IMG/VR virus record: IMGVR_UViG_3300048904_000202
Location: 68,007 to 132,006 of that record
Length of the DNA: 64,000 nt
Reading direction: 5' to 3' (one strand)
From: a virus
Lineage: Duplodnaviria > Heunggongvirae > Uroviricota > Caudoviricetes
The notes below the pieces were generated by a model. The model had not been told where the DNA came from and did no database searches. It saw only the letters and a program-made list of their open reading frames with translations. Positions within the stretch are counted from its first letter, which is position 1. Each line of letters opens with the position of its first letter. The position numbers were made by a program, and so were the translations under genes. This document shows positions 1 to 64,000 of this stretch, one piece after another.

Positions 1-30
1 CCCGCTGGCTATCCTTTCGAGGATCAGGCG

Positions 31-1221
31 ATGGATCAGATTCGCCGGGTCGCGTCGATGCCGTTCATCCACAAGCACATCGCCGTGATGCCCGACGCCC
101 ATGCCGGCATCGGTTCCACGGTGGGCACGGTGATCGCGACCAAGGGTGCGGTGATCCCGGCGGCCGTGGGCGTCGACATCGGCTGCGGCATGATGGCGAT
201 CAAGACCACGCTTCGGGCAGATCAGCTTCCCGACAACCTCGGGCAGATGCGCGCGGCGATCGAGGCGGCTGTGCCCCATGGGCGTGGTACCCAGCAGCAG
301 ATCAACTCCGGCCGCGATCCCGGCTCGTGGGGCGACATTCCCGAGCAGGTGCGGAAGCGCTGGATCGCCAAGACGCTGCCCAACATGGACTCGCTGTCCA
401 TGCGCTACGACGCGCTGCTCGCCAAGTATCCGAAGCTCAGGATGCACAAGGTCCCGGCTCACCAGTTGGGCACCCTCGGCACCGGCAATCACTTCATCGA
501 AGTTTGCCTCGACGAGAATGACGACGTGTGGCTGATGCTGCACTCGGGCTCGCGCGGCATGGGCAACAAGATCGGCTCATTCTTCATCGAGCAGGCCAAG
601 GAGGACATGGCGCGTCGCCACATGCAGTCCTTCCTTCCCGATGAGGACCTCGCGTTCCTGACCGAGGGTGATCTGCTGTACGACGACTATATGGAGGGTG
701 TCGGGATCGGGCAGGACTTTGCCCGCGAGAACCGTTACGCCATGATGGACGCCGTGGTCGCGGCGCTCAACACGCTGGCCGATCGCAATTACATCCCGCC
801 GTTCGCGCTGACCGAAATGGCGATCAACTGTCATCACAATTACGTGACCAAGGAGTCCCACTTCGGCGAGAACGTGCTGGTTACCCGCAAGGGCGCCGTA
901 CAGGCTCGTGAGGGCACGATGGGGATCATCCCCGGCTCGATGGGTACCGGCAGCTTCATCGTCCGTGGCCTCGGTAACGAACACAGCTTCTGTTCGTGCA
1001 GCCATGGCGCTGGGCGCGTGATGTCGCGGACGCAGGCGAAAAAGATGATTTCGATCCCTGATCACATCATGGCCATGAAGGGCATCGAGGCCCGGCTGGA
1101 TGCCGACATCATTGACGAGAGCCCGGCGGCCTACAAGCCGATCGGTGCGGTGATGGATGCCCAGAGCGATCTTGTCGAGATCGTCGCCCGCCTCCGCCAG
1201 ATCGTGAACGTGAAGGGCTGA
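31..1221 (+). CDS. rtcB: RNA-splicing ligase RtcB (3'-phosphate/5'-hydroxyl ligase)
   Basis: 396-aa ORF; N-terminal MPDAHAGIGSTVG metal-binding signature and overall RtcB-family architecture recognised from the translation. Confidence 0.85.
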   Translation: MDQIRRVASMPFIHKHIAVMPDAHAGIGSTVGTVIATKGAVIPAAVGVDIGCGMMAIKTTLRADQLPDNLGQMRAAIEAAVPHGRGTQQQINSGRDPGSWGDIPEQVRKRWIAKTLPNMDSLSMRYDALLAKYPKLRMHKVPAHQLGTLGTGNHFIEVCLDENDDVWLMLHSGSRGMGNKIGSFFIEQAKEDMARRHMQSFLPDEDLAFLTEGDLLYDDYMEGVGIGQDFARENRYAMMDAVVAALNTLADRNYIPPFALTEMAINCHHNYVTKESHFGENVLVTRKGAVQAREGTMGIIPGSMGTGSFIVRGLGNEHSFCSCSHGAGRVMSRTQAKKMISIPDHIMAMKGIEARLDADIIDESPAAYKPIGAVMDAQSDLVEIVARLRQIVNVKG

Positions 1222-2995: not shown

Positions 2996-3116
2996 CAAGT
3001 TTCATCCTGTTATGGTACATGAGAACGCCTCGGCAGTGATGCCGGGGCGTTTTTCTATTGACAAATCTTAGGGTCGAGTCCAATGGTCCACGAGAGATCA
3101 TCAACAAGGAGGACGA

Positions 3117-3320
3117 ATGGCCCGCGATTCTAAACATGCCCTGAACCGAATAATCGTTTCTCGAATGGGTAACGCCGCCACGCTGGTGATCGCGGGAGCC
3201 AGTATCGTGGACGGCCTGATCGGTATCGTGTCCGTTGGCTTTCTGCTGGGCGGTCTCCGCCATTCGGCTTCGCTCTGGGCAGCGCGGCGCGTCTACAAGC
3301 AAAGCACGCCCGATGTCTGA
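3117..3320 (+). CDS. small membrane protein
   Basis: 67 aa, strong RBS AAGGAGG 7 nt upstream; hydrophobic core; stop overlaps next start (ATGTCTGA). Confidence 0.5.
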   Translation: MARDSKHALNRIIVSRMGNAATLVIAGASIVDGLIGIVSVGFLLGGLRHSASLWAARRVYKQSTPDV

Positions 3321-3963
3321 ACGCTTCTTGATCGCCGACACTCATTTCACACAGGCGTCGATGTGTGCGTTCGCTCGCGACGATGGATCGCCGCTGCGCC
3401 CGTGGGGCCGGCCGGTGCCCGGTTGGAAAACGATGAGCGCGGAAGAGCGGGCGGATTTGCTACCTGAGTTCGAGCGTCGCGCGGCCGAAATGGACGAGGC
3501 AATGGTCGAGAACTGGAATCGAGTCGTCGGTCCAAAAGACAAGGTCGAGCATCTCGGAGACGTTGTAACCGCTCGCCGGCATCTTCCTATTTTGGGACGC
3601 CTGAACGGTAAAAAGCGCTTGCGTCTCGGAAACCACGATCCCTTCCTCAAGGACTACGGTAGGTATTTCGACGAGGTGTCCGCTTATAAAATTATGGACG
3701 ACCTCGTACTAACCCATATTCCAATCCACGAAGACTCTCTTAAAGAGAGGTGGAGGGCATGCGTTCATGGTCATCTTCACGATGGTCGTGTTATGACGTA
3801 CGCACCGGGGGTGAGGGGATCATACGATATGGCTAAGGAGGAAACGGCTGCTTCTGTGCATCCTCGCTACCTCTGCGTGTCGGTGGAACACATTGACTAC
3901 ACGCCCATTTCGCTCGACGACGTGTACGCCCGCATTGCATTGCAGCAGGAGACATTGGGTTGA
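3312..3963 (+). CDS. calcineurin-like metallophosphoesterase (lambda PPase-like)
   Basis: Motifs DTHF, LGDV, GNHD, THIP, HGHLH in canonical order; ATG 3312 overlaps upstream stop. Confidence 0.75.
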
Positions 3964-21047: not shown

Positions 21048-21069
21048 ATATCGTGCAAGTTGTGTCTCC

Positions 21070-27343: not shown

Positions 27344-28566
27344 GCCGCGAGCAGCATCTGGCGCATCTCGGCACCCGACATCGACACGTCGGTCGAGACG
27401 GCGAAATTGCTCGGGTCCTTCCCGAAGAGGGCCGCCATGCGCTGAAACTCCGAAAAGCCGAGGTCGCGCAACTCGATCGCCATATCGAAACGGCCCGGCC
27501 GGCGGAGCGCTTCGTCGAGGCGCTCGGGATGGTTCGTTGTCGCGATCGTCATGAGGCCGTCAGGCGCGATCAGGCCGTCGAGGATGTTGAGCATCGCCGA
27601 GAGCGTCACCGGCTTCTTGGGGCCGTCAGGTCCTTCTTCGCCTGTCGGGGCAGGGTTTTGCGCCGGCACGTTCCGATTGGTGTTCGCGCCGGCCGCGTCG
27701 AAGTCCTCCAGCACGAGAAGCTTTTTGTTCCAGTCCTGCCCATTCGCGACGAGATCGGTAAGCACCTGATCGCTGTCCACCGAACCGAGGTTCAGATAGT
27801 AGATCGAGCGGCCGAGGGCGGACGCCAGCGCGTGAATGAGAGACGATTTACCATTGCCCGGCGGTCCGTAGAGCAGCACGCCGATGCGGTGAGGAAGACC
27901 GAGGCGGTGGTTCTCTTCACGCTTGGTCGAGAACTCCGCGAGGCGGTTGAGGATCATATTCGCCGCGTCGTCTGCGGTGAATATGGTATCCATGCTCCGC
28001 AAGGGCAGCTTGCCGGCGCGATTCCACCACGAGCCCGAGTTGATGTAGAGCGGGACGGAGGTAAACTCTTCGTCCGAGGTACCCGCCATGCGCTTCACGT
28101 CCTCGGCGAAAGCCTCGACCACCCTCTTCGATCGTGTGAAGAACGTGACCTCGGTGTGTTCCTTGAACTTCGAGGTGTTGTCCGCTTCCTCGCGCTGGCG
28201 ATGTACCAACACGAGATGGCGGCGATAGAAACCGATGTGCGTACCATAGCCGACAGCAAGGCCGTGGTGCTTGGTCTGGTAATCTTCTTCGATCGAGTCC
28301 CACTTCTCCTCGGCCGAATAGTTGAAGTTGCGAGCGGTCTTCTGCCACACGACATTCTTCGTCACGTAGCGGACCACGGCGTCATAGTCCGGAAGGTCGT
28401 TGTTCCAACGGACCTCTACCGTGACGCACTTCTTGAGGAAGCCCCAGAGCTTCATCGGTACCGACCGCATCAGGTAAGTCGCGGTGGTCGCCGGCCCGGC
28501 GACGAGGGCCGCCTGCATGATCTGGTTGTGCTGGACCATGCTGGACAGAGAGGCGAACAGGCTCAT
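27340..28566 (-). CDS. BCS1-like AAA+ ATPase
   Basis: Walker A LLYGPPGNGKSSLIHALA, Walker B LLVLEDFDA, sensor region SAMLNILDG, TTNHPERLDEALRRPGRFD; about 190-aa N-terminal BCS1_N-like domain; start revised to MSLFASL. Confidence 0.8.
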   Translation of the reverse strand: MSLFASLSSMVQHNQIMQAALVAGPATTATYLMRSVPMKLWGFLKKCVTVEVRWNNDLPDYDAVVRYVTKNVVWQKTARNFNYSAEEKWDSIEEDYQTKHHGLAVGYGTHIGFYRRHLVLVHRQREEADNTSKFKEHTEVTFFTRSKRVVEAFAEDVKRMAGTSDEEFTSVPLYINSGSWWNRAGKLPLRSMDTIFTADDAANMILNRLAEFSTKREENHRLGLPHRIGVLLYGPPGNGKSSLIHALASALGRSIYYLNLGSVDSDQVLTDLVANGQDWNKKLLVLEDFDAAGANTNRNVPAQNPAPTGEEGPDGPKKPVTLSAMLNILDGLIAPDGLMTIATTNHPERLDEALRRPGRFDMAIELRDLGFSEFQRMAALFGKDPSNFAVSTDVSMSGAEMRQMLLAA

Positions 28567-28568
28567 GG

Positions 28569-28790
28569 TCAGTCCTTGATGCTCAGGGTGATCTCGCGGG
28601 GTGTGCCCGTGAAGCCGCCATTCGACGCTGCGTTCGAGGCGGCCGAGCGGGTGTTTAATATGCGTGCACCTTCGAGCGTATCGCTCAGCGATACGCGGGC
28701 GGTGTAGGCTCCCGGACTGGTCGCCTTGCGGGTCGAGACGAACTTGCCGTCGTCGGTCTGAAATACAAAATGAGCCAAGATCAGCCCCAC
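28569..28790 (-). CDS. hypothetical protein
   Basis: 73 aa, GTG start overlapping upstream stop. Confidence 0.35.
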   Translation of the reverse strand: MGLILAHFVFQTDDGKFVSTRKATSPGAYTARVSLSDTLEGARILNTRSAASNAASNGGFTGTPREITLSIKD

Positions 28791-29285
28791 TTGATGAGAT
28801 TGTTGATTGGATCGAGGTCGAGCGGGAAGAACTCGCGTTGGGTGGCGATCTTCTTCTTTTCAACCAGTTTGCGGCACTTGCGGGCGCAGTCCGTGGTTCC
28901 TACGAAACCTTCGAACACCGCCAGAACATCCGCCTCGAAATCGAGCAGCATGGCCTCGTTTCGCATGGCACCGGCGGCCTCACCGTAGCGGTCCCAATCT
29001 GCGAAATAACGCCGCCAAGGGACGCTGTTATCCACCGCCCATTCGAGGGCGAATGTATCAACGCCGCGAGCGCATCCGGCACCGAGTTCGACGATCGGGC
29101 CGAACCTCTCGCCGAAGTGAATCGAGTCAAGATGACCGTTGACGTACCCTCGGTCCTTGATTTCCCGGCCACCGGTGACAGCTATGCGAAAACCTACTGG
29201 GTCCGGAAAGGAAGCAGGTAGCGACCTCCCGACCTGCAAGATATTCTCCAGATCGTAGAAGCTCAGCGGCTTGAGTTTCACCGCG
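28781..29285 (-). CDS. SLOG-fold (DprA/DUF2493-like) protein
   Basis: GTG start in GTGA overlap; motifs AVTGGREIKD and GAGCARGVDTFALEWAV resemble DprA/LOG-like Rossmann proteins. Confidence 0.55.
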
Positions 29286-31481: not shown

Positions 31482-32303
31482 TCAGTTGACCTTGATGAAG
31501 GGAACCTGACCGCCGCCGGTGTACTGCGGTAGCACACCGTTCCACTTCTCGATCGCGCGCTGCTGGAGGATTTCCGGGTTGGTGCGGAGCGCTTCGCCCT
31601 CGATCTGCGTCGCCTTGGCGTCGGCCTCCGCCTTGGCAACCTTGGCGCGACCGTCTGCTTCGACAGTGGCGACGTTGGCCTGCGCGGCGAGCGCCTGCTG
31701 TTCGTTGGCGATCTTGGCGTTGATCTGACTGAGGATAGATTGCGGGATACGGATCGCTGACGCCCAGTAAAGCTGCTCGATGTGCAGGCCGAGCGGCTCG
31801 AAATAACGTCGCACGTCGCCGAGCGCGCCGTTGATCAGGTTGGTCTTCTGCGGGCCGTAAATCTGCTCGACCGTCATGCGGCTTGCGCGCTCGGCGAGCG
31901 CGGAGCGGACAGCGTTGCGAACCGGGCCGGCGATGATACCTGCCATGTCGGTGCGATACTTCTGGAACAGGATCGGCGCCTTGGTGGGATCGACGCGGTA
32001 GGCGACCGAAACGTCACCGTCGACCGTGAGGCCGGACTGGTCCTGAAACTGGAAGCTCTCGTCGGCATCCTTGCCTTCGGACTTCGTCGCGGTCCACGCA
32101 TAGGTGTTGGTGAACACCGGGTATTCGTAGATCGTGGTGCCGAGCATGGTGAAATAGGTGCCGACCGGGAGCGCGGTGTTCGAGACGCCGGCACTGGAAC
32201 CATATTGCTCAACCTTGACGCCGACATGTCCGGGCGTGACGCGCGAGCAGGCACCGAGCGCCATCGCGGCGACCAGTCCCAAGATGAGGGTAACCTTCTT
32301 CAT
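31482..32303 (-). CDS. SPFH/band-7 (HflC/stomatin-like) lipoprotein
   Basis: Start revised to MKKVTLILGLVAAMALGAC (lipobox LGAC); SPFH core plus C-terminal Ala/Glu-rich coiled coil; ATGA overlap with upstream gene. Confidence 0.75.
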   Translation of the reverse strand: MKKVTLILGLVAAMALGACSRVTPGHVGVKVEQYGSSAGVSNTALPVGTYFTMLGTTIYEYPVFTNTYAWTATKSEGKDADESFQFQDQSGLTVDGDVSVAYRVDPTKAPILFQKYRTDMAGIIAGPVRNAVRSALAERASRMTVEQIYGPQKTNLINGALGDVRRYFEPLGLHIEQLYWASAIRIPQSILSQINAKIANEQQALAAQANVATVEADGRAKVAKAEADAKATQIEGEALRTNPEILQQRAIEKWNGVLPQYTGGGQVPFIKVN

Positions 32304-32533
32304 TTCTTCTTGTCTCCTGTCATTTTTGCCAGCCGGTACAATTTTCGAGCGGCGGTGAAGGTGAGGGCGGGGAGCATGACCGTGAGCGCGATTGCCGCGA
32401 TCAGCGCCCCGTCGTTGTGGAGGTTTGCCAACGCCGGCACCGCGACCCCGATCACGAACACGGTTGCCACCGCGAGCAGGGCGGATAGGCCCCACAGTGC
32501 CAATAGCCGCGAATCGTCATTCATACTGGTCAT
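32300..32533 (-). CDS. small two-TM membrane protein (holin-like or SPFH partner)
   Basis: 77 aa, two hydrophobic helices, basic C-tail; ACGGAGAAATG RBS downstream of a motif-B promoter (32534-32590). Confidence 0.5.
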   Translation of the reverse strand: MTSMNDDSRLLALWGLSALLAVATVFVIGVAVPALANLHNDGALIAAIALTVMLPALTFTAARKLYRLAKMTGDKKK

Positions 32534-38815: not shown

Positions 38816-38992
38816 ATCACCACCACCAGCGGCGCGGACGGATGATGTCTCCTACCACGCACGCCAAGAGGAACACACCGACGAGAGCCCACGGGGTCAC
38901 CGTGACAGCGAACCACACGACGAAGTTAAGCACCAAAAGACCCGCCACGACAAGCACGGCGAGTCCGATAACCATGAAACAGCCTTGGATCA
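38816..38992 (-). CDS. small two-TM membrane protein (58 aa)
   Basis: Below ORF cutoff; ATGA overlap with the thioredoxin stop. Confidence 0.35.
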
Positions 38993-39322
38993 TGACGCTT
39001 TTCCGAGCGCATCGGTGACGAACTGCTCGAAATATTCATCCGACATGGTGCCGGCGCGGCTGGCGAGCGGGACGCCGAGGTCGAAGAACATCAACGTAGG
39101 CGTTCCCTTGATCTGGTACTCGCGCGTCATCTTCGGGCACTTCTCCACATCGATCTCCGCGTAATCGTATCGCCGGCCGGCCTCCTGCTCGATCGCGTCG
39201 TCGATCAGCGGATAGAGCGCGTGACTCGGGCCGCAGAATGACGATGTGAAAAGAACAAGCAGCGGCTTGTCACGACTGGTGAGGACCGACGCGAAATTGT
39301 CGTCGTTGAGATCGATGCTCAT
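38990..39322 (-). CDS. thioredoxin-fold protein with monothiol CGPS motif
   Basis: Thioredoxin-like layout (LVLFTSSFCGPSHALYPLID ... KGTPTLMFF) with the second Cys replaced by Ser. Confidence 0.7.
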   Translation of the reverse strand: MSIDLNDDNFASVLTSRDKPLLVLFTSSFCGPSHALYPLIDDAIEQEAGRRYDYAEIDVEKCPKMTREYQIKGTPTLMFFDLGVPLASRAGTMSDEYFEQFVTDALGKAS

Positions 39323-43005: not shown

Positions 43006-43286
43006 TGGACGGTCTGCCGATTGAGCCAGTCATAAAACTCCGGCCATTCGGCGGCGGCGTCGCCCTGATCCCAAGCGCGGAGAAACTCAACGGCGTTGGC
43101 GCTATCGTGGTCGGGGTTGACGTACAGCAGCCACTTGACCGCTTGCGCGGCCGTTCCGTGGTCGCCGGCAGGGCGGCCGGTTTTCGCGATCGGCTTACCC
43201 TTTGGTGCGTTCGTTTCAGTGTGCATTAGAATTGAATCCATATTTTGGACGGTCCTCCGACCGTCTGTTGGGTGAGCGTGGCGCAT
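43002..43286 (-). CDS. hypothetical protein
   Basis: 94-aa ORF. Confidence 0.4.
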   Translation of the reverse strand: MRHAHPTDGRRTVQNMDSILMHTETNAPKGKPIAKTGRPAGDHGTAAQAVKWLLYVNPDHDSANAVEFLRAWDQGDAAAEWPEFYDWLNRQTVQ

Positions 43287-44266
43287 CCGTCATTCGCACG
43301 CAGCCACTTGAGGGCGTCGATTTTCGGGATACCTGCGGTGGCACAAGCGGCGATCAAATCAGAGAGCCACATCCCACTAACATCCTGATCGAACAACTGG
43401 TCGATCACGTCGTCTACGGTCTTTTCAGGGAGATGAGAGATGCCTACAAAATTCACCTTGTTGTCGTAGAAGATCGCAACACCTGTTCGATCCTTACCGC
43501 CGGGGTCTATACCGACGACAATCCTACTTCGCTTAGAGATACCATGATGGATCGCGGATGATCCCAAGCCGCCACGGTGGATGAGTTTGGCTTTAGGAAG
43601 GGGTGGGACCACCGCCGGGGTAGGTGATGCGACCGGGGCCGTGACCTTGATGCGATCGTGCTTCGATACCTCGTAGCAGCGACAGTACCTACAATATTCC
43701 GGATTGGTGTGGTGGCACAGTTCGCCCGTGTTTCCATTGATCCGAACCGTGGGCTGCTCGACATACCAGAAGATATTGATCATGTCGGATCGACCGGCTG
43801 GAACTTCACATGCCGGGCTTACACCATCAACGGTCTTATAAGCTCCGATCGGATCGTAGGCACGATCGCGGCGATCAACGGTGAAGTGAGTCACCGAGTT
43901 CATTCCGTCCGATTTATAGATCGAGCGGAACTCGGAGAGCATGGCCTGTTTGTTGTTACCGCACCGCGAAGCGATAGTATCGAACTCGAAGCGCGCCATG
44001 GTGGACATGCTGGTCAGGACACGCAGGGGTTCGGTCGGCGGGAAGAAGCTCAGGCGGCGAGGAGGCTTGGGCAGAGCGCGCCAGATCAGGCGACCGGAAG
44101 CCAACATACCGCTACCCAGCGCAGCGAGGAGCATCGTCGTCACACTCATTGAGGCCGGCGCATGAGTGGCAAGCCAGATCGTCGTCACCATGAAGATGAT
44201 GACCGTTGTCAGTATCCAACGATCGAACCGATCGAAGTTCCGGAAGCCGGTCATCTCGGTGTTCAC
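43226..44266 (-). CDS. membrane protein with C-terminal RuvC-like (GIDPG) segment
   Basis: Two N-terminal TM helices, central Cys cluster (CHHTNPEYCRYCRC), then RIVVGIDPGGKDRTGVAIF resembling RuvC/YqgF motif I. Confidence 0.5.
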   Translation of the reverse strand: MNTEMTGFRNFDRFDRWILTTVIIFMVTTIWLATHAPASMSVTTMLLAALGSGMLASGRLIWRALPKPPRRLSFFPPTEPLRVLTSMSTMARFEFDTIASRCGNNKQAMLSEFRSIYKSDGMNSVTHFTVDRRDRAYDPIGAYKTVDGVSPACEVPAGRSDMINIFWYVEQPTVRINGNTGELCHHTNPEYCRYCRCYEVSKHDRIKVTAPVASPTPAVVPPLPKAKLIHRGGLGSSAIHHGISKRSRIVVGIDPGGKDRTGVAIFYDNKVNFVGISHLPEKTVDDVIDQLFDQDVSGMWLSDLIAACATAGIPKIDALKWLRANDGCATLTQQTVGGPSKIWIQF

Positions 44267-51544: not shown

Positions 51545-52311
51545 GGTGCGCTGTCTCCGGTCGGATTGGGGACGAACCGGCCGCCCATGCGACGCGCTTG
51601 CGTGTCGGCGGCTTGGGTGATGTGAGGCGCCACAGTGGCTATGGACAGAGCTTCGAGCCGGTTAGCTACCGCGTCCATGAATTGACTGTATTCCGGGTCG
51701 AGATTGTCTCGCGCTTGCATCCGGCATTGTGCCGCAAGGTCCTGCGTCTCGTATTGGTCGAAGCGACCACCGGGCGTCCGCTTCTCATCGCTCGGTGTGC
51801 CGTCGGTTGTCATACCCCGGTGCGGATAGGCCGGCAGCAGGAGATGGATGATCCGGTCGGCGGCGCGGCGGCTGATCTGCGCCATGTGGCTACCGCTCGT
51901 GCTGTTCGCGTCCTTGATGAAATCGAGACCGGCTTGCAGGACGACGCGCTTGATCTGTTCGGTTGCCCAATGCTCGCGTTCGCGGGTGTCGATCTGCGGC
52001 TTGAGGGATGTCATCTTGGCAATGATGTCCTTGGCGAAATAGCTGGCGTTCACGGACGACATGACCCTGCCCAAGTAGGCGAGTGATGCATCTTGCACCG
52101 CGTCCGTGATGTGCCCGTCGAGGTCCACGATCGTGTCCTCGCGCTCCTGTAACGCCCGGCCGAGTTTGATCGCGGCGAGCGGTCCCTGAACGAACGGGCT
52201 GGTATCATAGACACCGTCGAGGATATCGGCGCGCGGACAGGCGCTGGGTGGCAGCGGGCCATGCTTAGCGACATGCTCGCGGGCGCGCTTGAAGTCAGGG
52301 TCGATGCTCAT
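51541..52311 (-). CDS. hypothetical protein (256 aa)
   Basis: Long ORF, 4-nt overlaps. Confidence 0.5.
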   Translation of the reverse strand: MSIDPDFKRAREHVAKHGPLPPSACPRADILDGVYDTSPFVQGPLAAIKLGRALQEREDTIVDLDGHITDAVQDASLAYLGRVMSSVNASYFAKDIIAKMTSLKPQIDTREREHWATEQIKRVVLQAGLDFIKDANSTSGSHMAQISRRAADRIIHLLLPAYPHRGMTTDGTPSDEKRTPGGRFDQYETQDLAAQCRMQARDNLDPEYSQFMDAVANRLEALSIATVAPHITQAADTQARRMGGRFVPNPTGDSAP

Positions 52312-52694
52312 GCGGTCCTCGGAAAGTCGTAGTTAGGGCGGTGGTCGTCACCCCACGACACGGAACTGACCAGTCGGCCATCCGGCTCGTAAGAGTGGCG
52401 GGCGAAGAAGTATCGGATGTTCACATGCCAATGCGGGTAGGATTCGCTCGGCGTCTGGATCAGGATCGAGACATATGGGTCACCCCAACGAGCGGCCTCG
52501 TCCTCGGCGAACCGATGGGCGTAAGCATTGCAGTCAAAAAGACCTTGGAACGACCACTTGTTCTCGACCCATTCATTGTGGGTATTGTGAGCCAGTACCC
52601 AGACGGCCGTGTGATCAAAGGGCTGCGGTACGCCTAGGAACGGCGGTAGTTGCGGAAGCGCCCGATCATAGCCGGGCAAAGTTGTTAGACTCAC
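52308..52694 (-). CDS. hypothetical protein
   Basis: 128-aa ORF. Confidence 0.45.
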   Translation of the reverse strand: MSLTTLPGYDRALPQLPPFLGVPQPFDHTAVWVLAHNTHNEWVENKWSFQGLFDCNAYAHRFAEDEAARWGDPYVSILIQTPSESYPHWHVNIRYFFARHSYEPDGRLVSSVSWGDDHRPNYDFPRTA

Positions 52695-53182
52695 GCGGCG
52701 TACTCAGTTGCGTATTCCGACGATCTCCACCACGCGAGCGGCGACTTGAAAGCGTTATAGCGTTCGAAGAGGATGTCTTCGGGGATACGATGGTCCTCGG
52801 GACGTGTCCGGTTACGCTCCGCCAGCAAGGGAAGAGGGCGGTCGAACACCACCAACCGAACAGGCAAGTTCAAGCGCTCGGCATAAGAGATGAACGGCGC
52901 GACTGCCGGCTGATCTATTCCGGTATCGGTGACCGCCCAAGAAGGCTCCGGCCAATAGAACAACGCGTTGAGCATTGCTTGTGTCACGACGGCGCTGCAC
53001 TCCGCACGATCGAACTCGCTGGCGTGATAAGCCTTCCGTGATCCGAACAGACACTCGCGAAAGCGGTCACGTTCCAAGCGCAGTGTGGACGCCGCAAGGT
53101 TGGCGTCGGCCCATGTTGACTTACCGGCGCCGGGGCAGCCGATCGTGATCGTCAGGCCGTTGTAGCGATCACCGTGGATCAT
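52691..53182 (-). CDS. polynucleotide 5'-kinase (T4 Pnk kinase-domain-like, no phosphatase domain)
   Basis: LTITIGCPGAGKSTWADAN nearly identical to T4 Pnk P-loop (ILTIGCPGSGKSTWAREF), followed by RLERDRFRE and conserved downstream blocks; ends after about 160 aa. Confidence 0.75.
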   Translation of the reverse strand: MIHGDRYNGLTITIGCPGAGKSTWADANLAASTLRLERDRFRECLFGSRKAYHASEFDRAECSAVVTQAMLNALFYWPEPSWAVTDTGIDQPAVAPFISYAERLNLPVRLVVFDRPLPLLAERNRTRPEDHRIPEDILFERYNAFKSPLAWWRSSEYATEYAA

Positions 53183-53326
53183 GACGGTCCTCATAGATCG
53201 AGTTGGCGGGACGGATCACCCAGCCGAACATGTTGGCGAGTTGGCGGCGCATCCATGGGGTCGATTCACGTGATGTGGCGGCGACGACTTGGTCCCACGA
53301 GGAGCCTTGGGATTTGGCAGTGATGG

Positions 53327-53620
53327 TCATGCCGCGAGTTCCCGCAGGTATGTGATGACCGCTGGGTTTCCTTTCCCACCGAACCGATCGTTTTCTTCGT
53401 AGATCATCCGACGAACATGTCGCGGTATCTCAGTATCGTTGGCAGTGGCGACATTGAGTTCCTTCATGATGCGACCCATGGCGCAGAAACAAACAGCTTC
53501 GGGCGAGGAGCTAGTAACGCGTTCACCTAGAGCGTTCGCGGCCAGATAGCCGGCGATGTGCTTGTCCGGATTGGCTTCCAGCCAGTCGGCGGCCCGGAGA
53601 ATAGCTTCCTTGTTCATGCC
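53327..53620 (-). CDS. paralog family member P5 (MNKEAIxRAADWLEANPDK...CFCAxGRI...YLRELAA)
   Basis: 97 aa; start ATGAACAAGGAAGC in ATGA overlap with P4 stop; a 57-aa ORF fills 53197-53330. Confidence 0.55.
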   Translation of the reverse strand, partial: GMNKEAILRAADWLEANPDKHIAGYLAANALGERVTSSSPEAVCFCAMGRIMKELNVATANDTEIPRHVRRMIYEENDRFGGKGNPAVITYLRELAA

Positions 53621-53955
53621 GCGAGCCTCCGCAGGTGCGCGACGACCGCCGGGTTTCCATTCGGCCACACGTTATTAGTCGGAATCAAATCGCGATCGTT
53701 GACGCGCCAGATATCCATGGATTGCTCTTTATCGAGCCCCACCGCGCGGTTGATGGTGTCGTAGCTTCTCGTACCGGGCGGTGAATCCACATTGGCTTCC
53801 AGAGCAATTCTCCCGAGGGCGCAAAAGCATTCCGCCAATGGTGATGTAGGTGAACACCGCTGACCAAGGACATCGATCGCCAGCGATCCGGCGATGTGCT
53901 TGTCCGGATTGGCTTCCAGCCAGTCGGCGGCGCGGAGGATAGCTTCCTTGTTCAT
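53614..53955 (-). CDS. paralog family member P4
   Basis: 113 aa; ORF-track start (54129) extends into the upstream gene, so start revised to MNKEAILRAADW. Confidence 0.55.
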   Translation of the reverse strand: MNKEAILRAADWLEANPDKHIAGSLAIDVLGQRCSPTSPLAECFCALGRIALEANVDSPPGTRSYDTINRAVGLDKEQSMDIWRVNDRDLIPTNNVWPNGNPAVVAHLRRLAA

Positions 53956-54704
53956 ACGAAATACGGTGTCCTGTCCTTGAACCCGTTGAGTGCCTTGGTC
54001 TCGCGAATGTATTCGTAGAGCTTGGCAAGTAGGTCCGGGTCGTGTTGGCGAGGATCGATGCGCGCGGTGAGGATCGCGTCGATCGCTTCGATGTTCTGGG
54101 CGGCGAGTTCGTCCCTGCCGCAAAAGCAATCGGGGATGCGGGCATATTCCTCTGCGACCGCCGGCACCTCAAAGAGGCGGCAGAGTTCTAGAATTTCGGT
54201 CTTCGAGAAGACATTGATCGGCTGGACCGACACGCTCTTGGCGAGTGCGGTATAGGTTCCCAACGCCTTCTCGGTGTTGTTCATTGTCCCTACGACCCAG
54301 AAGTTCTCACCGGGGTCGCGCACCGTGACCTTGACGCTACCGAACTCATCGACCGCGACGTGGTTTAGCGCCCGCAGGTGCAAGTCAGCCCAGCGCTGTG
54401 GGTCGAAGTTCCCGCCGAGTGGCGACAGACATTCTACCTTGGCGGACGGGCAATGCCGCGCCAGCCACCACAGAATGTTGGCCTCGAACCAAGTGGGCTT
54501 ACGCCGTTGGTGATCCGCATAGTGGATGCCCCAGACGCGATCGGCGATTCCCATAATCTCCGCCGCCTCATAGACGAGAGTGAAGGCGATGATGCTGTCG
54601 GTGCCGGACAGGCCCATGAGGAGGCCGGGGACCGGGGTCTGCGACATTCGCATTTTCGCGACGAGACGATCCCGCGCGCGGAGGAATTTGTCAGCGACGC
54701 TCAT
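53952..54704 (-). CDS. NadE-like PP-loop ATP pyrophosphatase (NH3-dependent NAD+ synthetase-like)
   Basis: LLMGLSGTDSIIAF matches NadE LVLGISGGQDS; later VVGTMNNTEKALGTYT matches NadE VVGTDHAAEAITGFFT; start revised to MSVADKF (ATGA overlap with P3). Confidence 0.55.
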   Translation of the reverse strand: MSVADKFLRARDRLVAKMRMSQTPVPGLLMGLSGTDSIIAFTLVYEAAEIMGIADRVWGIHYADHQRRKPTWFEANILWWLARHCPSAKVECLSPLGGNFDPQRWADLHLRALNHVAVDEFGSVKVTVRDPGENFWVVGTMNNTEKALGTYTALAKSVSVQPINVFSKTEILELCRLFEVPAVAEEYARIPDCFCGRDELAAQNIEAIDAILTARIDPRQHDPDLLAKLYEYIRETKALNGFKDRTPYFV

Positions 54705-55078
54705 GCCGCGAGCTTCCGCAGGTACGGGATCACATCCGGATTGCCGCGCCATAGCGGCTTCTCGGCGGTCTCCATGGTGTCCACGTCATAACGTTCATTG
54801 ATCGCATCATTGAGCTTGACGATCGCGGCGAACTGCGTGCCGTCGAGGCCGGAGATGTGGTAGAACCACCGGCGGTTGTCGCGATCGACGCCGTGCATGG
54901 AAGTCGGGGCCTCGCCACACTCCTTGGCAATGCGACCGATGGCGCAGAAGCACTCGGCGTCAGGGTGGTTGGGACCAACATAGTCACCGGCGGCGTTGGC
55001 CGCGTAGAAGGCGGCCATGTGCTTGTCGGGGTTCGCTTCCAGCCAGTCGGCGGCGCGGCGGATAGCTTCCTTGTTCAT
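54701..55078 (-). CDS. paralog family member P3
   Basis: 125 aa; shared N-terminus MNKEAIRRAADWLEANPDKH, CFCAIGRI, C-terminus YLRKLAA. Confidence 0.55.
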   Translation of the reverse strand: MNKEAIRRAADWLEANPDKHMAAFYAANAAGDYVGPNHPDAECFCAIGRIAKECGEAPTSMHGVDRDNRRWFYHISGLDGTQFAAIVKLNDAINERYDVDTMETAEKPLWRGNPDVIPYLRKLAA

Positions 55079-55410
55079 GCGAGTAATTCCCTGAGGGTGG
55101 CGGCCATGTATCGGGCGGCGGTTTTTGGCGGCATCGCCTCGACGACGGCGTCGTTGATCTCGGTCAGCCTATCCAAAGTCTCGAAGGACAGGCCGGTGAC
55201 GCGAGGAAACAGTTCTTGGGGCCGGTGTGCGACTGTCGCCTTGACGCCAGTCTCGTGAATCAATCGACCTACCGTGCAAAAACACACGGCGAGGCTTCCG
55301 GTCGGTCCTGTCCTGCGGCCCTCCGCAGTGCGGGCGAAATCACCGGCAAGCAGCTTGTCGGGGTTACGCTCGATCCAGTCGGCGGCGCGGCGGATTGCTT
55401 CGACGTTCAC
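55075..55410 (-). CDS. paralog family member P2 (most diverged)
   Basis: 111 aa; GTG start in GTGA overlap; MNVEAIRRAADWIERNPDK...CFCTVGRL...LRELLA. Confidence 0.55.
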   Translation of the reverse strand: MNVEAIRRAADWIERNPDKLLAGDFARTAEGRRTGPTGSLAVCFCTVGRLIHETGVKATVAHRPQELFPRVTGLSFETLDRLTEINDAVVEAMPPKTAARYMAATLRELLA

Positions 55411-57209: not shown

Positions 57210-57842
57210 TCAGTCACAACCCCGGCACGAGAAGTCGATCGTGCCACGCGCCAGCTTGGTGCCGAGAAGCGCGTCCATCTTGTCCCAGAACTCGTCGTAG
57301 GAGTGGTAGTGATTGATCCACCACGGTTCATCATCGGTGGTTGACCAGCGCATAGCGTCGCTGATCATGTCGTCGTAGGGGACGCCGGCATCGCGAGCGA
57401 AATTGCGCAACCACAACATGGCTTCGAAATGTGCGGATCGGCTGTCAGAGCCGGCAGGCGCGGTTTGTTCGGGTGCCGCAAGCGCTACATCGGACGGTGC
57501 GAATGCCGGATGATCCCAGACGTGGCGCAGCGTTGAAATCTGGCCGGGATTGAGCAGCATGAGGAAGCGCTCGCCCTTGCGGACATTGCACTTGAGGTAC
57601 GGATCGACGACGCCGAGCGCGTGACGAGTGGTCATGCCCGAGTGGCGGTCACCACCATGCGGCGCGGCGACGGCCGTACCGTCTTCGAGCAGACCGATCG
57701 GACAGCCGGGTTTCAGTTCCTCGGCGGCGGTGACGGGCTCGACCGCGATGTGGATCGCGTCGCGCTTGACGGTGTGATCGATGATGCATCCCAGCACGCG
57801 TAGGGCGTCGGTGTCGGGTGTGCGGGTGTCGGCGGATGCCAT
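57210..57842 (-). CDS. hypothetical protein (210 aa)
   Basis: ORF with 1-nt overlaps at both ends. Confidence 0.5.
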   Translation of the reverse strand: MASADTRTPDTDALRVLGCIIDHTVKRDAIHIAVEPVTAAEELKPGCPIGLLEDGTAVAAPHGGDRHSGMTTRHALGVVDPYLKCNVRKGERFLMLLNPGQISTLRHVWDHPAFAPSDVALAAPEQTAPAGSDSRSAHFEAMLWLRNFARDAGVPYDDMISDAMRWSTTDDEPWWINHYHSYDEFWDKMDALLGTKLARGTIDFSCRGCD

Positions 57843-59116
57843 TAAATGCCTCCTTCTTGAGCTATGTCCCAGCGCCGGCCGGCGCGAGGATCGGGTTTCT
57901 TTTCAGGCGGAGCGCCTCGTTGATCATTGGCGCCGCGTTGGTATTTCGCCTTGGACGCTTCGATCAGGTCCTTGGTGTCCTTGAGCATTTTGCGCTTGCC
58001 TATCTGGAAGTGCGGGTGATCGGGCTCGCGGCGGCGCGCCTCTTCCTCGGAGATGAACTCGCGCTTGGGCTTGGCGGCTAGACGTTCGCGCTCGCGCTCC
58101 AGCCACGCGTCGTTCTCGGCGTCGCGGGCCGCCTGCTGCTCACGCAACCGGTTCTCGCGGACCTGCTCCTCGACATCGGGATCGTCCTTGAACGCATCGA
58201 CGATGATCCGCGCGATCCGCGACGAGGCAGGACCGGCGGCCGCCAGTTCGTTACAGGCGTCGATCGCGTGATCGAGACGATTATGGGCGTGGATGCGGTT
58301 GCGCTCACCACGCTCCATCATCGGTTCGCGCGCCTTGCGGTTGAAGATGATATAGGGCGCGGACACCTGTTCCTCGCCCTTAGGCATGAAGCGGACCTCA
58401 TAGTCGCCGGCCCGGTAGTGGACCTCGCCGAGCGCCGGTTTTGGATCAGGCGCGATCTCGTAGAAATAGAGAGCGTCGCGCTCCGCATCATAGATCGAGG
58501 GGTAAATGACGGGCTGGCCGTTATCGTCGATCGCGACATAGAGGCCGCGTTCGTCGAGGATCGTCACCGCGTACTGGTTGACGAGATGTGGGAGATCGCC
58601 CGTCTGGTTGTTTCCACCCCGCGCCGCTCGGCCGCGCCTCTTCGCCTCGTTGGTGATGCAGCGCCAGACCTGCGCGATCGGGTTCGTGCCATCGACACAA
58701 ATCTGAAAGCGACTGGTGTTGAACCCATAGCGCGGCATCCGCTTCTGCGCCTTGGGACCGGGCTTGCCGGCCGTGGGCTTGTTCCTCGATCCCTTGGGCC
58801 GGCCGCGACCGCGCTTGGGGGTTTCGTCAGTGGCCGCAGGAGTCGCGGGATTGCCATAAGTCGATGAGCCAGATGGCGGCGCCTTAGTGGTCTTCGTGAC
58901 ATAGACCGCGAGGGACGCGTCGTTCGCCACAGTATCACGGGTGATCTTCTTCATCCCGCGCCGTGCGGACGCTTCGTCGGCGAAACCACGGATACGGCGT
59001 TCGCTGCCATAGAGCGGCTGGCGGTTGATCGTATGGACCTCGACCCAGTACGGATTCGCACTGGCCGGCACATGCACGAGCCGGTGGAGTCCATCACTGG
59101 TTAGGGGTTCACTCAC
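57842..59116 (-). CDS. AT-hook DNA-binding protein next to the iteron array (candidate replication initiator or regulator)
   Basis: 424 aa; GTG start; PKRGRGRPKGSRNKP AT-hook; first gene of the leftward block, about 200 bp from the iterons. Confidence 0.55.
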   Translation of the reverse strand: MSEPLTSDGLHRLVHVPASANPYWVEVHTINRQPLYGSERRIRGFADEASARRGMKKITRDTVANDASLAVYVTKTTKAPPSGSSTYGNPATPAATDETPKRGRGRPKGSRNKPTAGKPGPKAQKRMPRYGFNTSRFQICVDGTNPIAQVWRCITNEAKRRGRAARGGNNQTGDLPHLVNQYAVTILDERGLYVAIDDNGQPVIYPSIYDAERDALYFYEIAPDPKPALGEVHYRAGDYEVRFMPKGEEQVSAPYIIFNRKAREPMMERGERNRIHAHNRLDHAIDACNELAAAGPASSRIARIIVDAFKDDPDVEEQVRENRLREQQAARDAENDAWLERERERLAAKPKREFISEEEARRREPDHPHFQIGKRKMLKDTKDLIEASKAKYQRGANDQRGAPPEKKPDPRAGRRWDIAQEGGI

Positions 59117-60819: not shown

Positions 60820-61259
60820 TGTTTAGCTTTCCGGTCACAGTACCGTTCCGCGATCCGGAAGGTGTGTTTCCCGTGGACCTATCGATTTGCGTCGACAATG
60901 TCCTCAAGGTTACCCCTCTTGACAAAGATCATAGTTTTGGTGTAGAGTCTGACACACTCTACTCCTGCCTGCCGTCCTGCGAGATACTTTTCGAGGACGG
61001 CCGCAAACTCCCGGTCATGGAAACGGCGGCGACGATCAATCGCTACCTCGACCTGTACCGGCAGATCGAGAGCTTCTACACAGCGCCGGCCACGCCCGCT
61101 CGAAGTTCAGCACAAGGCATCCGCTCCCAGCATTTGCGAACCGAACGGCCTGACGCCGTGCGGGTCCACCCGCTGACCGGAGCGACGGAGGGAGTAGTCG
61201 TCCCTCTCTTTGGCCGAACCTCCCCATGCGCTTCATCGGAGGCATCGACCCCGGACTAA
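60819..61259 (+). CDS. hypothetical protein
   Basis: Start revised to MFSFPVTVPF (TGATG overlap). Confidence 0.4.
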   Translation: MFSFPVTVPFRDPEGVFPVDLSICVDNVLKVTPLDKDHSFGVESDTLYSCLPSCEILFEDGRKLPVMETAATINRYLDLYRQIESFYTAPATPARSSAQGIRSQHLRTERPDAVRVHPLTGATEGVVVPLFGRTSPCASSEASTPD

Positions 61260-61795
61260 CCGGGGCGCTCGCCGTCCTCGATTTCGACCTAGCCTGCCTG
61301 CACCTCTGGGACACCCCGACTGTCTCGGTGCAGGTAGGCGACAAGGTACGCAAACGCGTTGACCCTATCGCCTGTGCCGAGGCGGTAGGGCGTTTCCCAT
61401 TGGACTCCTCGCTGATCGAGAATGTCCACTCAACACCGAACGACGGTCACGCCGGTGCCTTCACCTTTGGCAAGGCGACCGGGATCATGATCGGTGTCTT
61501 TGCCGGGCTCGACTTCCCGCTCGGCAGCGTCGCTCCCGCAAAGTGGAAAATGGCGATGCAGGTTCCGGCCGACAAAGGCGATGCCATGCGTCGAGCCTCA
61601 GAAATGTTCCCGCGCTGTACCAAGGCTTGGGCACGCAAAATGGACAACGGTCGCGCCGAGGCGGCCATCATCGCGCTCTTCCACGCGATCTCGCTGGGTC
61701 TCCAACCCACCCGCCCGTTCGACCTCGGTCTCGTGAACGGGAAACCCTTCATCTCCTCCCCACCGAAAGCGCCCCGTCGTGCCCGAACTCACTAA
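61226..61795 (+). CDS. RuvC-like Holliday junction resolvase (phage-type)
   Basis: MRFIGGIDPGLTGALAVL matches RuvC motif I (GIDPG..G.A); 189 aa; sits just before the terminase genes. Confidence 0.75.
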   Translation: MRFIGGIDPGLTGALAVLDFDLACLHLWDTPTVSVQVGDKVRKRVDPIACAEAVGRFPLDSSLIENVHSTPNDGHAGAFTFGKATGIMIGVFAGLDFPLGSVAPAKWKMAMQVPADKGDAMRRASEMFPRCTKAWARKMDNGRAEAAIIALFHAISLGLQPTRPFDLGLVNGKPFISSPPKAPRRARTH

Positions 61796-62327: not shown

Positions 62328-64000
62328 GTGTCCGAGACAGCAGAACAGAAAAAGGACCGACTGCGTACCAGTGAAAAGCTCCTCAAGGCGCTTTCCGCTG
62401 AGGTAGAAGAATGCCTCGATCGTGGAAAGCCCATGTCCGAGAAGGCGTACAAGCAGTTGGTCGCGATCAGCGGCACGACAAACTTGGACGGCCAGATGCT
62501 CGCGCTGGACCATTTCATGGAAGAGACCGAGCGCGAACTTACCGAGGTTTGGACCGGTCTGGCGAAGAACTCATACCACCACTTCTACGAGTGGATGGCG
62601 CGAAACGAAGGCGACGACGAGGAAGGCTACACCATGTCGCCGCACCAGCGGCTGATCGGTGATCTGCTCATGTCGTCGGCGTCGAAGGAGACCATGCGGT
62701 TCATGCTCTCCATGCCGCCGGGCCACTGCAAGTCGACCCATTCCTCGCACCACTTCCCTGCGTGGTGGATCGGCCGCAACCCGCGCCGCATCTTCCTGCA
62801 AGCCGGCCACAGTCAGGACTTCGTGTCGAACGAGCTTGGCGCCAAGGTCAAGTCGATCATCGACAGCGAGGATTACACCGCCGTCTTCCCGACGATCAAA
62901 GTCCGCTCCGACATGCGAGCCAAGGACTATTGGGGGCTCACCAACAAGAAGGGCAAGTACGTCGCCAAGGGCGCGGGGCAGGGCATTTCTGGCTTCCGTG
63001 GTCACTATGGAATGGTCGACGATCCCTACGCCAGCCGCGAACACGCTGAAAGCGCCACGATCCGCGAGAAGGTGTTCAAGTGGTATTCAGACGATTTTAG
63101 CACCCGACTTCTGCCGGGCTCGCCGCTGGGAATTATTATGACCCGGTGGCACTCTGATGACCTCTGCGGACGTATTACAGATCGCGAAGCAAAAGAACTT
63201 TTGGAGGCCCAAGAAAAGGCGCAAAAACTTCTCCTCGAAAATATCGCGGAAAACGAGCCGCTTAGGGGCCGTTACCGTTTCGAGATAATTAATCTCCCGG
63301 CGATCTGCGAAGACGAGGACGATGTTCTAGGCCGCGCGGTTGGCGAACCTTTGTGGCCCGAGGTGTTCAATCTCGATGCTCTGACAAATCTTCGAGCAGA
63401 CATGACGGGGCCGTCGTGGAACTCCCTCTATCAGGGAACGCCCATCGACATCTCCGGCGGCGTCGTCGCGGGCGACTGGTTCAAGCGCTACACGAAGCTG
63501 CCCGGCACGATGGAAGGCAACGCGCCGACCAACCAAATCCGGCGCACGACGGTGTCGGTCGACGCGGCCAACACGGCGAAGGAACGTAGCGACTACACGG
63601 TCATCACGGTCTGGATCGAGGACATGGTGAAGAACCACTACCTCGTCGATGTGGTCCGCAAGCAGATCGAGCTTCCCGAACTGACGACCGAAATCGCTCG
63701 CGTCTGCAAACGCTACAACGCCGACGCGCTGCTGGTCGAAGCCAAGGGTAACGGTCTCGCCTACATCCAGTCGAAGCGCGATGGCGGAGCCCCGGCGCCG
63801 ATCATCTCGATCGAGGTGGGGCAGGCGTCGAAGCAGTTCCGTTTCGACGAAGTGTCGCCGATGATCGAGGGTGGTCAGGTCTATTTGCCCGAGCGCGCCT
63901 CGTGGCTGCCGGACTATGAGAAGGAACTGATCGGCTTCCCGAACGCGAAGTACGACGACCAAGTCGACTCGACCTCGCAGTACCTGAAATGGGCCAAGGG
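62328..64000 (+). CDS. terminase large subunit (partial, continues beyond window end)
   Basis: Open frame without a stop to position 64000, hence absent from the ORF track; Walker A-like LSMPPGHCKST, later TDDP/nuclease-region-like blocks; GTG 62328 sits in frame 3 nt after the TerS stop, or ATG 62433. Confidence 0.8.
   Translation, partial: MSETAEQKKDRLRTSEKLLKALSAEVEECLDRGKPMSEKAYKQLVAISGTTNLDGQMLALDHFMEETERELTEVWTGLAKNSYHHFYEWMARNEGDDEEGYTMSPHQRLIGDLLMSSASKETMRFMLSMPPGHCKSTHSSHHFPAWWIGRNPRRIFLQAGHSQDFVSNELGAKVKSIIDSEDYTAVFPTIKVRSDMRAKDYWGLTNKKGKYVAKGAGQGISGFRGHYGMVDDPYASREHAESATIREKVFKWYSDDFSTRLLPGSPLGIIMTRWHSDDLCGRITDREAKELLEAQEKAQKLLLENIAENEPLRGRYRFEIINLPAICEDEDDVLGRAVGEPLWPEVFNLDALTNLRADMTGPSWNSLYQGTPIDISGGVVAGDWFKRYTKLPGTMEGNAPTNQIRRTTVSVDAANTAKERSDYTVITVWIEDMVKNHYLVDVVRKQIELPELTTEIARVCKRYNADALLVEAKGNGLAYIQSKRDGGAPAPIISIEVGQASKQFRFDEVSPMIEGGQVYLPERASWLPDYEKELIGFPNAKYDDQVDSTSQYLKWAK

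Follow-up and report, generated by a model that had tools for sequence, protein, structure and literature searches.

Bacteriophage T4 polynucleotide kinase-phosphatase (Pnkp, encoded by pseT) combines a P-loop 5'-kinase domain (Pnk) with a C-terminal 3'-phosphatase domain of the HAD type, marked by a DxDxT motif. Mutagenesis has identified six residues as essential for its 5'-kinase activity, namely Lys15, Ser16, Asp35, Arg38, Asp85 and Arg126; Asp35 is the general base for the 5'-OH, Arg126 binds the beta-phosphate of the nucleoside triphosphate (NTP), Thr86 touches the acceptor phosphate, and Val131, Pro132 and Val135 line the pocket for the 5'-terminal nucleobase (PMC2831316). The Pnkp of Clostridium thermocellum carries its kinase, binuclear metallophosphoesterase and ligase-like domains on one polypeptide, which works with Hen1. 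The RNA ligase RtcB is a stand-alone catalytic unit with a strict requirement for 3'-PO4 and 5'-OH; it hydrolyses a 2',3'-cyclic phosphate (2',3'>P) to 3'-P and then joins the 3'-P to the 5'-OH (PMC3592404). In jumbo phages, polynucleotide kinases and phosphoesterases track ATP-dependent ligases (PMC7824862). Here we compare with these systems one gene in a stretch of 64,000 nucleotides (nt) from a Caudoviricetes genome, positions 68,007 to 132,006 of IMG/VR virus record IMGVR_UViG_3300048904_000202; we call the whole stretch the window. The gene, at 52691..53182 on the minus strand, encodes a protein of 163 amino acids (aa) plus stop. A preliminary description had taken it for a kinase-only homologue of T4 Pnk and had combined it with an RtcB and a metallophosphoesterase at the other end of the window into one tRNA-repair system. 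Comparisons of sequence and of a predicted structure confirm the protein as a kinase-only relative of T4 polynucleotide kinase. We consider it likely that it is a stand-alone polynucleotide 5'-hydroxyl kinase of the T4 Pnk kinase-domain family, encoded by an accessory gene in a leftward block; the three-gene system is not supported.

The identity of the protein is supported at several levels. Its sole Pfam match above the cut-off is AAA_33 (E 1.4e-15), and it matches PHROG 505, 'polynucleotide kinase', with E 7e-18. Among solved structures, the best sequence matches are T4 Pnk (1ly1, E 3.4e-8) and full-length T4 Pnkp (1ltq, E 1.5e-7), followed by PSTK (E 0.011) and C. thermocellum Pnk (E 0.065); thus, of the two enzymes that the preliminary description had named for alignment, T4 Pnk is the best match and the clostridial kinase is far more distant by sequence. 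The T4-like pseT genes are 25-33% identical to the window kinase (tblastn), and identity to T4 Pnkp itself is ~24-26% over ~140 residues. An AlphaFold model built from 36 homologues reached a predicted local distance difference test (pLDDT) value of 94.5. A fold search with this model placed T4 Pnk first, with template-modelling (TM) scores of 0.71/0.78 (T4 structures 1ly1, 1ltq and 2ia5). Foldseek ranks 1-29 are all taken by T4 Pnk, C. thermocellum Pnk (4gp6, 4jst and 4mde; TM ~0.70) and mammalian PNKP, with adenylate kinases, PFKFB3 and PSTK lower. A small-molecule kinase, which the preliminary description had set against its own proposal, is not what these searches returned, as polynucleotide kinases are on top both by sequence and by fold.

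The active site points the same way. In what follows, residues are counted from an in-frame ATG at 53194, which is discussed below. All motifs lie on the minus strand. The P-loop GCPGAGKST (G19-T27; 53114..53140) provides K25 and S26, the equivalents of T4 Lys15 and Ser16; the shared form GCPG[SA]GKSTWA is almost identical in the two proteins, and the peptide quoted in the preliminary description, LTITIGCPGAGKSTWADAN, is indeed present in the translation. The RDRFR motif (R42-R46; 53057..53071) contains D43, equivalent to Asp35; D90-T91 (52922..52927) correspond to Asp85 and Thr86; and NRTR (N128-R131; 52802..52813) ends in R131, equivalent to Arg126. In HRIPEDIL (H135-L142; 52769..52792), I137, P138 and I141 occupy the positions of Val131, Pro132 and Val135, and H135, R136 and P138 are nearly invariant in the family alignment. 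Taken together, the six essential T4 residues align with K25, S26, D43, R46, D90 and R131, all of which are invariant in 36 family members. The general base and the phosphate clamp of the acceptor site (Asp35, Arg38 and Asp85) are kept as D43, R46 and D90, and the nucleobase pocket is kept as well, whereas T4 Glu57 is not conserved. The likeness to the T4 kinase domain, first seen in the P-loop and the blocks downstream of it, is thus borne out by Pfam, PHROG, structure-sequence, fold and active-site comparisons.

We propose the following mechanism by homology. K25 and S26 of the P-loop, together with R131, would hold the phosphates of NTP-Mg, and the 5' end of a single-stranded RNA or DNA would enter the acceptor tunnel. 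There, R46 and D90/T91 would hold the phosphate 3' of the terminal nucleoside, with I137, P138 and I141 packing on the base. D43 would then activate the 5'-OH to attack the gamma-phosphate, leaving a 5'-monophosphate end. Family membership and the conserved catalytic site are direct observations; from them we infer the substrate, which is probably the broken ends of RNA or DNA.

The protein ends at residue 167 of this numbering, and neither a DxDxT nor a DxDG[TVC] motif was found in it; unlike T4 Pnkp, it has no C-terminal HAD 3'-phosphatase domain. A search of the window with the HAD_PNKP phosphatase profile also returned nothing, the best value being E 3.9. The earlier statement that the protein stops after about 160 aa, short of a 3'-phosphatase domain, is therefore accurate for this 163-aa product. 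We dismissed the idea of a truncated pseudogene because the 75 close homologues are similarly short; these come from a family of at least 75 stand-alone proteins, all of 130-197 aa. Such relatives surfaced in IMG/VR with an alignment query, while a scan of IMG/VR with the single kinase protein gave no match. When 1.84 billion representative proteins were searched with a profile, 2,994 matched. Among the best 150 of these, 145 were newly listed; 105 of the 145 are of 210 aa or less, and 28 are of 271-360 aa, mostly with a DxDGT motif as in T4 Pnkp. The 145 also include a few fusions of kinase and Rnl1 ligase of 567-668 aa. The 76 IMG/VR loci with kinase relatives, L010-L085, give a similar distribution: 38 kinases are stand-alone, 27 are HAD-fused and 10 are ligase-fused. 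Kinase-only forms are common, not rare. The gene is a further member of a large, already annotated class of stand-alone phage polynucleotide kinases, and one of its relatives is already named 'polynucleotide kinase' in GenBank.

The reading frame of the gene is longer than its likely coding sequence, extending from 52691 to 53194 (minus strand, 167 aa) when the alternative in-frame ATG at 53194 is used. The ATG at 53182 appears the likelier start because AGGA lies 5 nt upstream of it and because the public gene call P0001 uses the same start; P0001 is a 163-aa protein, 100% identical to the window kinase and present on contigs of up to 164 kb. On both grounds, the interval 52691-53182 given in the preliminary description is the likely coding sequence. 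The gene is tightly packed among small minus-strand open reading frames (ORFs). Upstream, the 3' end of a 53-aa ORF (53169..53330, minus strand) overlaps the kinase start by 14 nt; downstream, a 128-aa ORF (52308..52694, minus strand) without a Pfam or PHROG family has a GTG start that overlaps the kinase stop (GTGA). The 128-aa ORF is not kept beside the kinase in relatives, and a contig that carries an identical kinase (L007) has a different downstream gene. We considered the ORFs on either side of the kinase as its partners, the downstream ones being of 128 aa and 256 aa, and rejected them, as they have no Pfam or PHROG matches; nor are they homologous to the membrane protein that is conserved 3' of the kinase in XM05-like phages. 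A promoter and terminator scan around the gene stayed at chance level, and a DNA-level search of window 51-55 kb against phage records gave no match.

The wider setting is best explained if the kinase is an accessory gene of a siphovirus-like phage of ~150-165 kb related to the Erythrobacter phages XM05 and vB_EliS-L02, with hosts of the sphingomonad type. When inverted, the window aligns colinearly with 98-146 kb of the 152-kb XM05 genome, at 40-70% protein identity, and it is also colinear with 79-119 kb of Sphingobium phage Lacusarx. The kinase belongs to a long block of small minus-strand genes, which extends from ~59 kb down to 4.5 kb and is divergent from the RuvC/terminase operon. On the plus strand, a block at 1-4421 holds RtcB, a DUF7831 protein, three small (partly membrane) proteins and the metallophosphoesterase. 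The kinase is 49-52 kb away from the phosphoesterase and RtcB, on the other strand and in the other gene block. Its orthologues have the same length and the same phage backbone: XM05_170, annotated as 'hypothetical protein', is 56% identical, that of vB_EliS-L02 ('AAA family ATPase') 54%, and that of Citromicrobium phage vB_CbaS-RXM ('polynucleotide kinase'; hereafter RXM) 41%, with a hidden Markov model (HMM) match of E 4e-46. In XM05-like phages, the kinase stands between an XM05_168-like gene and a membrane-protein gene, with thioredoxin and then RlaP beyond the latter; the window has its XM05_168 homologue at a distance of 6 kb from the kinase and lacks that membrane protein and RlaP.

Co-inheritance can be read from four of these phages. 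XM05 and vB_EliS-L02 have the kinase, RtcB and the phosphoesterase. Of the three genes, RXM (a complete genome of 104 kb) has only the kinase; in the colinear 70 kb of Lacusarx it is the kinase that is missing (best E 0.62), and RtcB and the phosphoesterase are both present. RXM and Lacusarx thus separate the kinase from the other two genes, contrary to a co-inherited, distributed system of three. The conserved unit is the block from RtcB to the phosphoesterase, and the kinase is an independent accessory gene.

The left block has some features of its own. XM05 and Lacusarx share with the window the arrangement of RtcB, the DUF7831 protein, the small proteins and the phosphoesterase; in vB_EliS-L02, ~2.5 kb separate RtcB from the phosphoesterase. 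In Lacusarx (NC_041927 66.9-83.5 kb, our locus L094), the block is preceded by 24 tRNA genes, a transfer-messenger RNA (tmRNA) gene, a large gene resembling the XM05 primase (annotated as hypothetical) and tadA. A similar tRNA cluster may sit just beyond the left edge of the window; tRNA and Rfam scans of the 64-kb window itself were empty, and when we looked left of RtcB by way of the DUF7831 protein, the sole match was a contig ending inside RtcB. The DUF7831 protein (1270-1701, plus strand; Pfam E 1.4e-29) is encoded directly 3' of RtcB and is kept in XM05, Lacusarx and RXM. It is independent of RtcB, because RXM has DUF7831 without RtcB, and its label in XM05, 'replication initiation protein', looks doubtful.

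The neighbours of related kinases are more informative about function than those in the window. A phosphoesterase of PHROG 547 is adjacent on the same strand in 14 of the 38 stand-alone-kinase loci versus 1 of the 27 HAD-fused loci (Fisher p = 0.002 for adjacency alone and 1e-5 with nearby cases added; the loci are phylogenetically non-independent, so these values overstate the support). Where adjacent to a stand-alone kinase, the phosphoesterase gene follows it directly, at -33 to +265 nt from the kinase stop, for example in L076, L082, L030, L045 and L049. All tested phosphoesterases belong to PHROG 547 (E 1e-40 to 1e-51) and the tested kinases to PHROG 505 (E 1e-13 to 1e-25). Of the 10 kinase-Rnl1 fusions, 9 have this phosphoesterase no more than 3 kb away. 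An ATP-dependent ligase of Rnl1 or Rnl2/5 type is fused to the kinase, or lies within 8 kb of it, in 44 of the 76 loci; the corresponding count for RtcB within 8 kb is 0/76. In L030, an RNA ligase (PHA02142 OB domain plus RNA_ligase), the kinase and a metallophosphoesterase are consecutive genes. L011 has, within ~2.7 kb, an RNA-ligase-like gene, an HD gene, two small ORFs, a kinase 42% identical to that of the window and a Macro gene. In L049, a Thg1 gene lies 1.3 kb 5' of the kinase, and rnlA is 1-2.6 kb from pseT in T4-like loci. At L011 5425-7102, the RNA-ligase-like ORF upstream of the kinase matches only positions 62-171 of Pfam RNA_ligase and is seemingly without the region of the motif-I lysine; as the 221-aa ORF before it contains a KVNG motif, the ligase may be split or decayed.

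The RNA-repair nucleotidyltransferase RlaP (PF10127) is a further neighbour, found in most members of the kinase's own clade. It adjoins a kinase 61% identical to that of the window in L010/L097 (5132-6693), and it is 4-7 kb from the kinase in XM05 (112457-118495), vB_EliS-L02, L008, L087 and L088; L090 belongs to the same set of loci, with RlaP adjacent or within 4-7 kb. Searches for RlaP in the window and in RXM found none. By analogy with these loci, the neighbour links support a role of the kinase in healing RNA ends. In other phages, kinases of this kind act in heal-and-seal RNA repair; their partners there are an ATP-dependent RNA ligase and either a PHROG-547 phosphoesterase or a HAD phosphatase fused to the kinase.

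How does the phosphoesterase of the window fit this pattern? The gene (3313..3963, plus strand) encodes a protein of 216 aa that matches PHROG 547, 'phosphoesterase', with E 3e-41; among solved structures, Aquifex aq_1665 (1xm7) is the only one related to it by sequence. The family motifs DxH, GD, GNHD and GHxH are present as DTH, GD, GNHD and GHLH, and no Pfam match was obtained at E<=0.1. The phosphatase domain of C. thermocellum Pnkp is of the lambda type, with a GDxxDRG motif, and this motif is absent from the window phosphoesterase. The preliminary description was thus right that a phosphoesterase is encoded here, but not in calling it lambda-phosphatase-like or in starting it at 3312 instead of 3313; it is aq_1665-like. 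The complementary pattern of the survey, in which PHROG-547 members stand beside HAD-less kinases and almost never beside HAD-fused ones, supports naming the family a 3'-end-healing enzyme; it suggests that the aq_1665-like PHROG-547 family substitutes for the missing HAD phosphatase. By this analogy, the window phosphoesterase is a plausible 3'-healing partner acting in trans, a candidate 2',3'-cyclic-phosphodiesterase or 3'-phosphatase. The C. thermocellum enzyme offers a parallel, in that a P-loop 5'-kinase is likewise combined with a metallophosphoesterase for 3' healing, but on one chain. Closer parallels are the phage pairs in L030, L045, L076 and L082, which belong to the same families, 505 and 547 (E 1e-13 to 1e-51), and have a kinase without a phosphatase domain. 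Their genes are adjacent, often overlapping, and frequently within 5 kb of a ligase of Rnl2/5 or Rnl1 type, whereas those of the window are 49 kb apart on opposite strands with no such ligase detected; moreover, the kinases of these pairs are only 25-29% identical to that of the window. The partnership proposed in the preliminary description is therefore supported at the level of the family (14/38 versus 1/27), but not by linkage or co-inheritance in the window's own phage group; the partnership and the biological role are inferred.

The sealing step is a separate matter. RtcB (1..1221, plus strand; Pfam RtcB E 1.7e-119), an RNA ligase of the 3'-P/2',3'>P plus 5'-OH type, is 68% identical to XM05_239. 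Its presence had been recognised correctly; its start had been placed at 31, which is an internal Met, as the ORF is open to window base 1 and its 5' end is cut by the window edge. The co-occurrence of the three genes in one genome does not amount to a pathway, since RtcB and the heal-and-seal enzymes use opposite end chemistries. RtcB needs no kinase, and sealing by RtcB after the action of kinase and phosphatase is not supported, because the healed 5'-P/3'-OH ends mismatch the requirement of RtcB for 3'-PO4 and 5'-OH (PMC3592404). End chemistry, the 0/76 linkage and the dissociation in RXM and Lacusarx all run contrary to RtcB as the sealing step of the kinase; RtcB is best seen as a repair route that stands by itself, and not as the ligase that serves the kinase. 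A role of RtcB alone against anticodon nucleases is possible.

Several observations count against a stand-alone 5'-hydroxyl kinase with a healing role. The kinase has weak similarity to KTI12 and PSTK. Its direct neighbours are ORFans without conservation, so the local context gives no hint of function, and no Rnl1 ligase neighbours it as in T4. The candidate phosphoesterase is 49 kb away on the opposite strand and is not co-inherited with it in relatives; elsewhere, a PHROG-547 phosphoesterase is the usual neighbour of HAD-less kinases. No ligase of Rnl1, Rnl2 or Rnl5 type was found in the window by Pfam, an Rnl1 HMM or Rnl2/5 jackhmmer searches; the Pfam search covered the large ORFs and nearly all ORFs of at least 60 aa between 1.6 and 50.5 kb, and the ORFs at 50.4-62.3 kb were covered in part by Pfam and PHROGs and also by the local HMM searches. 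Likewise, neither XM05 (150 of 152 kb searched) nor RXM (whole genome) gave an ATP-dependent RNA ligase, and Lacusarx 60-130 kb gave none of Rnl1 or Rnl2/5 type. The annotated ligases are RtcB and NAD-dependent LigA in XM05, and LigA only in RXM. The heal-and-seal pathway is thus incomplete as far as can be seen, and ~100 kb of the phage genome lie beyond the 64-kb window. The sealing enzyme could be a host ligase, an unrecognised ligase, or the product of a gene in those ~100 kb.

It is also conceivable, though on balance unlikely, that the kinase serves RNA turnover: it would phosphorylate 5'-OH ends made by an endoribonuclease of phage or host, and host RNases stimulated by a 5'-monophosphate would then degrade the fragments. 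There is a documented precedent, as T4 PNK phosphorylates RegB-cut mRNAs, leading to their degradation by RNases E and G (PMC3014915). Neither a phosphatase nor a ligase would be needed, which fits a kinase-only enzyme in genomes without a detected ATP-dependent RNA ligase, and also the persistence of the gene in RXM. However, no RegB-like nuclease was identified among the scanned window ORFs, and the kinase relatives are mostly linked to repair genes (ligases, phosphoesterases, RlaP and Thg1). The enzymology would be the same, so RNA turnover is compatible with a stand-alone polynucleotide 5'-hydroxyl kinase.

The substrate might instead be DNA, with the kinase repairing 5'-OH ends at nicks or breaks for the NAD+-dependent DNA ligase of the phage; we regard this as rather doubtful. 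T4 Pnk and mammalian PNKP do act on DNA, structures bound to single-stranded DNA are among the fold matches, LigA is encoded by XM05 and RXM, and the window phage has NAD+ salvage genes. However, LigA is a core replication gene of the group, so that its co-occurrence means little, and the T4-type acceptor tunnel takes single strands and appears to exclude duplexes (PMC2831316). The relatives' neighbours, moreover, are RNA-repair genes. XM05_56, a HAD protein beside LigA that is annotated as 'polynucleotide kinase' and has a DFDGV motif, was considered as the missing phosphatase half and rejected: it fails the Pnkp phosphatase profile (E 4.3) and has no PDB match, and its other matches are weak (PHROG 415 with E 0.008, and a Pfam 5'-nucleotidase below the cut-off).

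A P-loop kinase for some other substrate, be it a small molecule, a nucleotide or an aminoacyl-tRNA (gluconate/shikimate-, zeta-toxin- or PSTK/Kti12-like), is improbable. AAA_33 is a broad family, some databases label family members Kti12, and there are weak matches to Zeta_toxin (E 0.036), PSTK (E 0.011) and, for the XM05 orthologue, KTI12 (E 2.9e-5). Polynucleotide kinases nevertheless score four to six orders of magnitude better in the sequence comparison and are first in fold, and the Pnk-specific acceptor residues (the equivalents of Asp35, Arg38 and Asp85, and the nucleobase pocket) are kept. The window protein lacks the tRNA-binding domain found at the C-terminus of PSTK/Kti12, and the fusions found in relatives are to the Pnkp phosphatase and Rnl1 ligase.

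The model of the preliminary description, in which kinase, phosphoesterase and RtcB form one distributed tRNA-repair pathway against anticodon nucleases, is very improbable. It can draw on the occurrence of all three genes together in the window, XM05 and vB_EliS-L02, on the position of RtcB just downstream of the 24-tRNA cluster and tadA in Lacusarx, and on the standing of RtcB as a known repair ligase. On the other side, healed 5'-P/3'-OH ends fail the RtcB requirement (PMC3592404), RtcB is within 8 kb of the kinase in none of the 76 loci, 49-52 kb and a change of strand separate the kinase from the other two genes, and of the three RXM has retained only the kinase, with Lacusarx showing the converse.

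The sphingomonad-phage lineage is mildly puzzling in this respect, as it has healing enzymes and often RlaP, yet RtcB is the only RNA ligase found. RtcB is likewise the only RNA ligase detected in the RlaP-bearing relatives for which enough sequence could be searched, namely XM05; the analysis covered ~14 kb of vB_EliS-L02. The combination of RlaP and RtcB in this lineage mirrors the incompatibility of RlaP and RtcB ends already raised for bacterial operons, where an 'RNA 3'-kinase yet to be discovered' was called for between the two (PMC12776372). RtcB being the only detectable RNA ligase of the lineage and RlaP lying near the kinase in several relatives, the RtcB route might have taken up the kinase, for example as an RNA 3'-kinase that re-phosphorylates 3'-OH ends made by RlaP for RtcB to join; in a milder version, an unrecognised ligase among the ORFans would do the sealing. 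A kinase in the service of RtcB is the least probable of the readings, because the 5'-kinase acceptor site is fully conserved and there are kinase-bearing relatives without RtcB or RlaP.

The window also has genes for NAD+ salvage on the minus strand: a nicotinamide phosphoribosyltransferase (NAPRTase plus NAMPT_N; 18449-19945) and an NMNAT-like protein with a C-terminal Nudix domain (19958-21220). A PP-loop protein (53952-54752, minus strand), 0.8 kb upstream of the kinase, matches PHROG 11189, 'NAD synthetase', with E 8e-42. Together, these three genes form an NAD+ salvage set that may counter NAD-depleting defences. In the distant phage of L011, NMNAT and NAMPT genes lie 3 kb from the cluster of RNA-ligase, HD, kinase and Macro genes. 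We considered a link between the kinase and the NAD genes and rejected it, as the NAD-synthetase-like neighbour is absent from XM05 and there is no NAD-related kinase among the 50 listed fold matches.

Four paralogous genes of ~100-125 aa, all on the minus strand (55075-55410, 54701-55078, 53614-53957 and 53327-53619), are split by the NAD-synthetase-like gene. Their products share the N-terminus MNKEAI[LR]RAADWLE[AR]NPDKH and a CFC[AT]xGR motif; there was no Pfam match in those scanned and no PHROG match in the two scanned. Three larger minus-strand ORFs have no significant Pfam or PHROG match: one of 772 aa (23133-25451), the largest gene of the window, one of 424 aa (57842-59116), with a weak sub-threshold EAD1 match, and one of 346 aa (43226-44266). 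The minus strand further encodes a weak tyrosine-integrase-like protein (7887-9296), a BCS1-like AAA ATPase (27340-28863), a phage lysozyme (30636-31145), an SPFH/band-7 protein (31482-32495) and a thioredoxin (38990-39322). On the plus strand, at the right end, are a RuvC-like resolvase (61226-61795), homologous to XM05_135, and the large terminase (62328-63998), which is cut by the right edge of the window.

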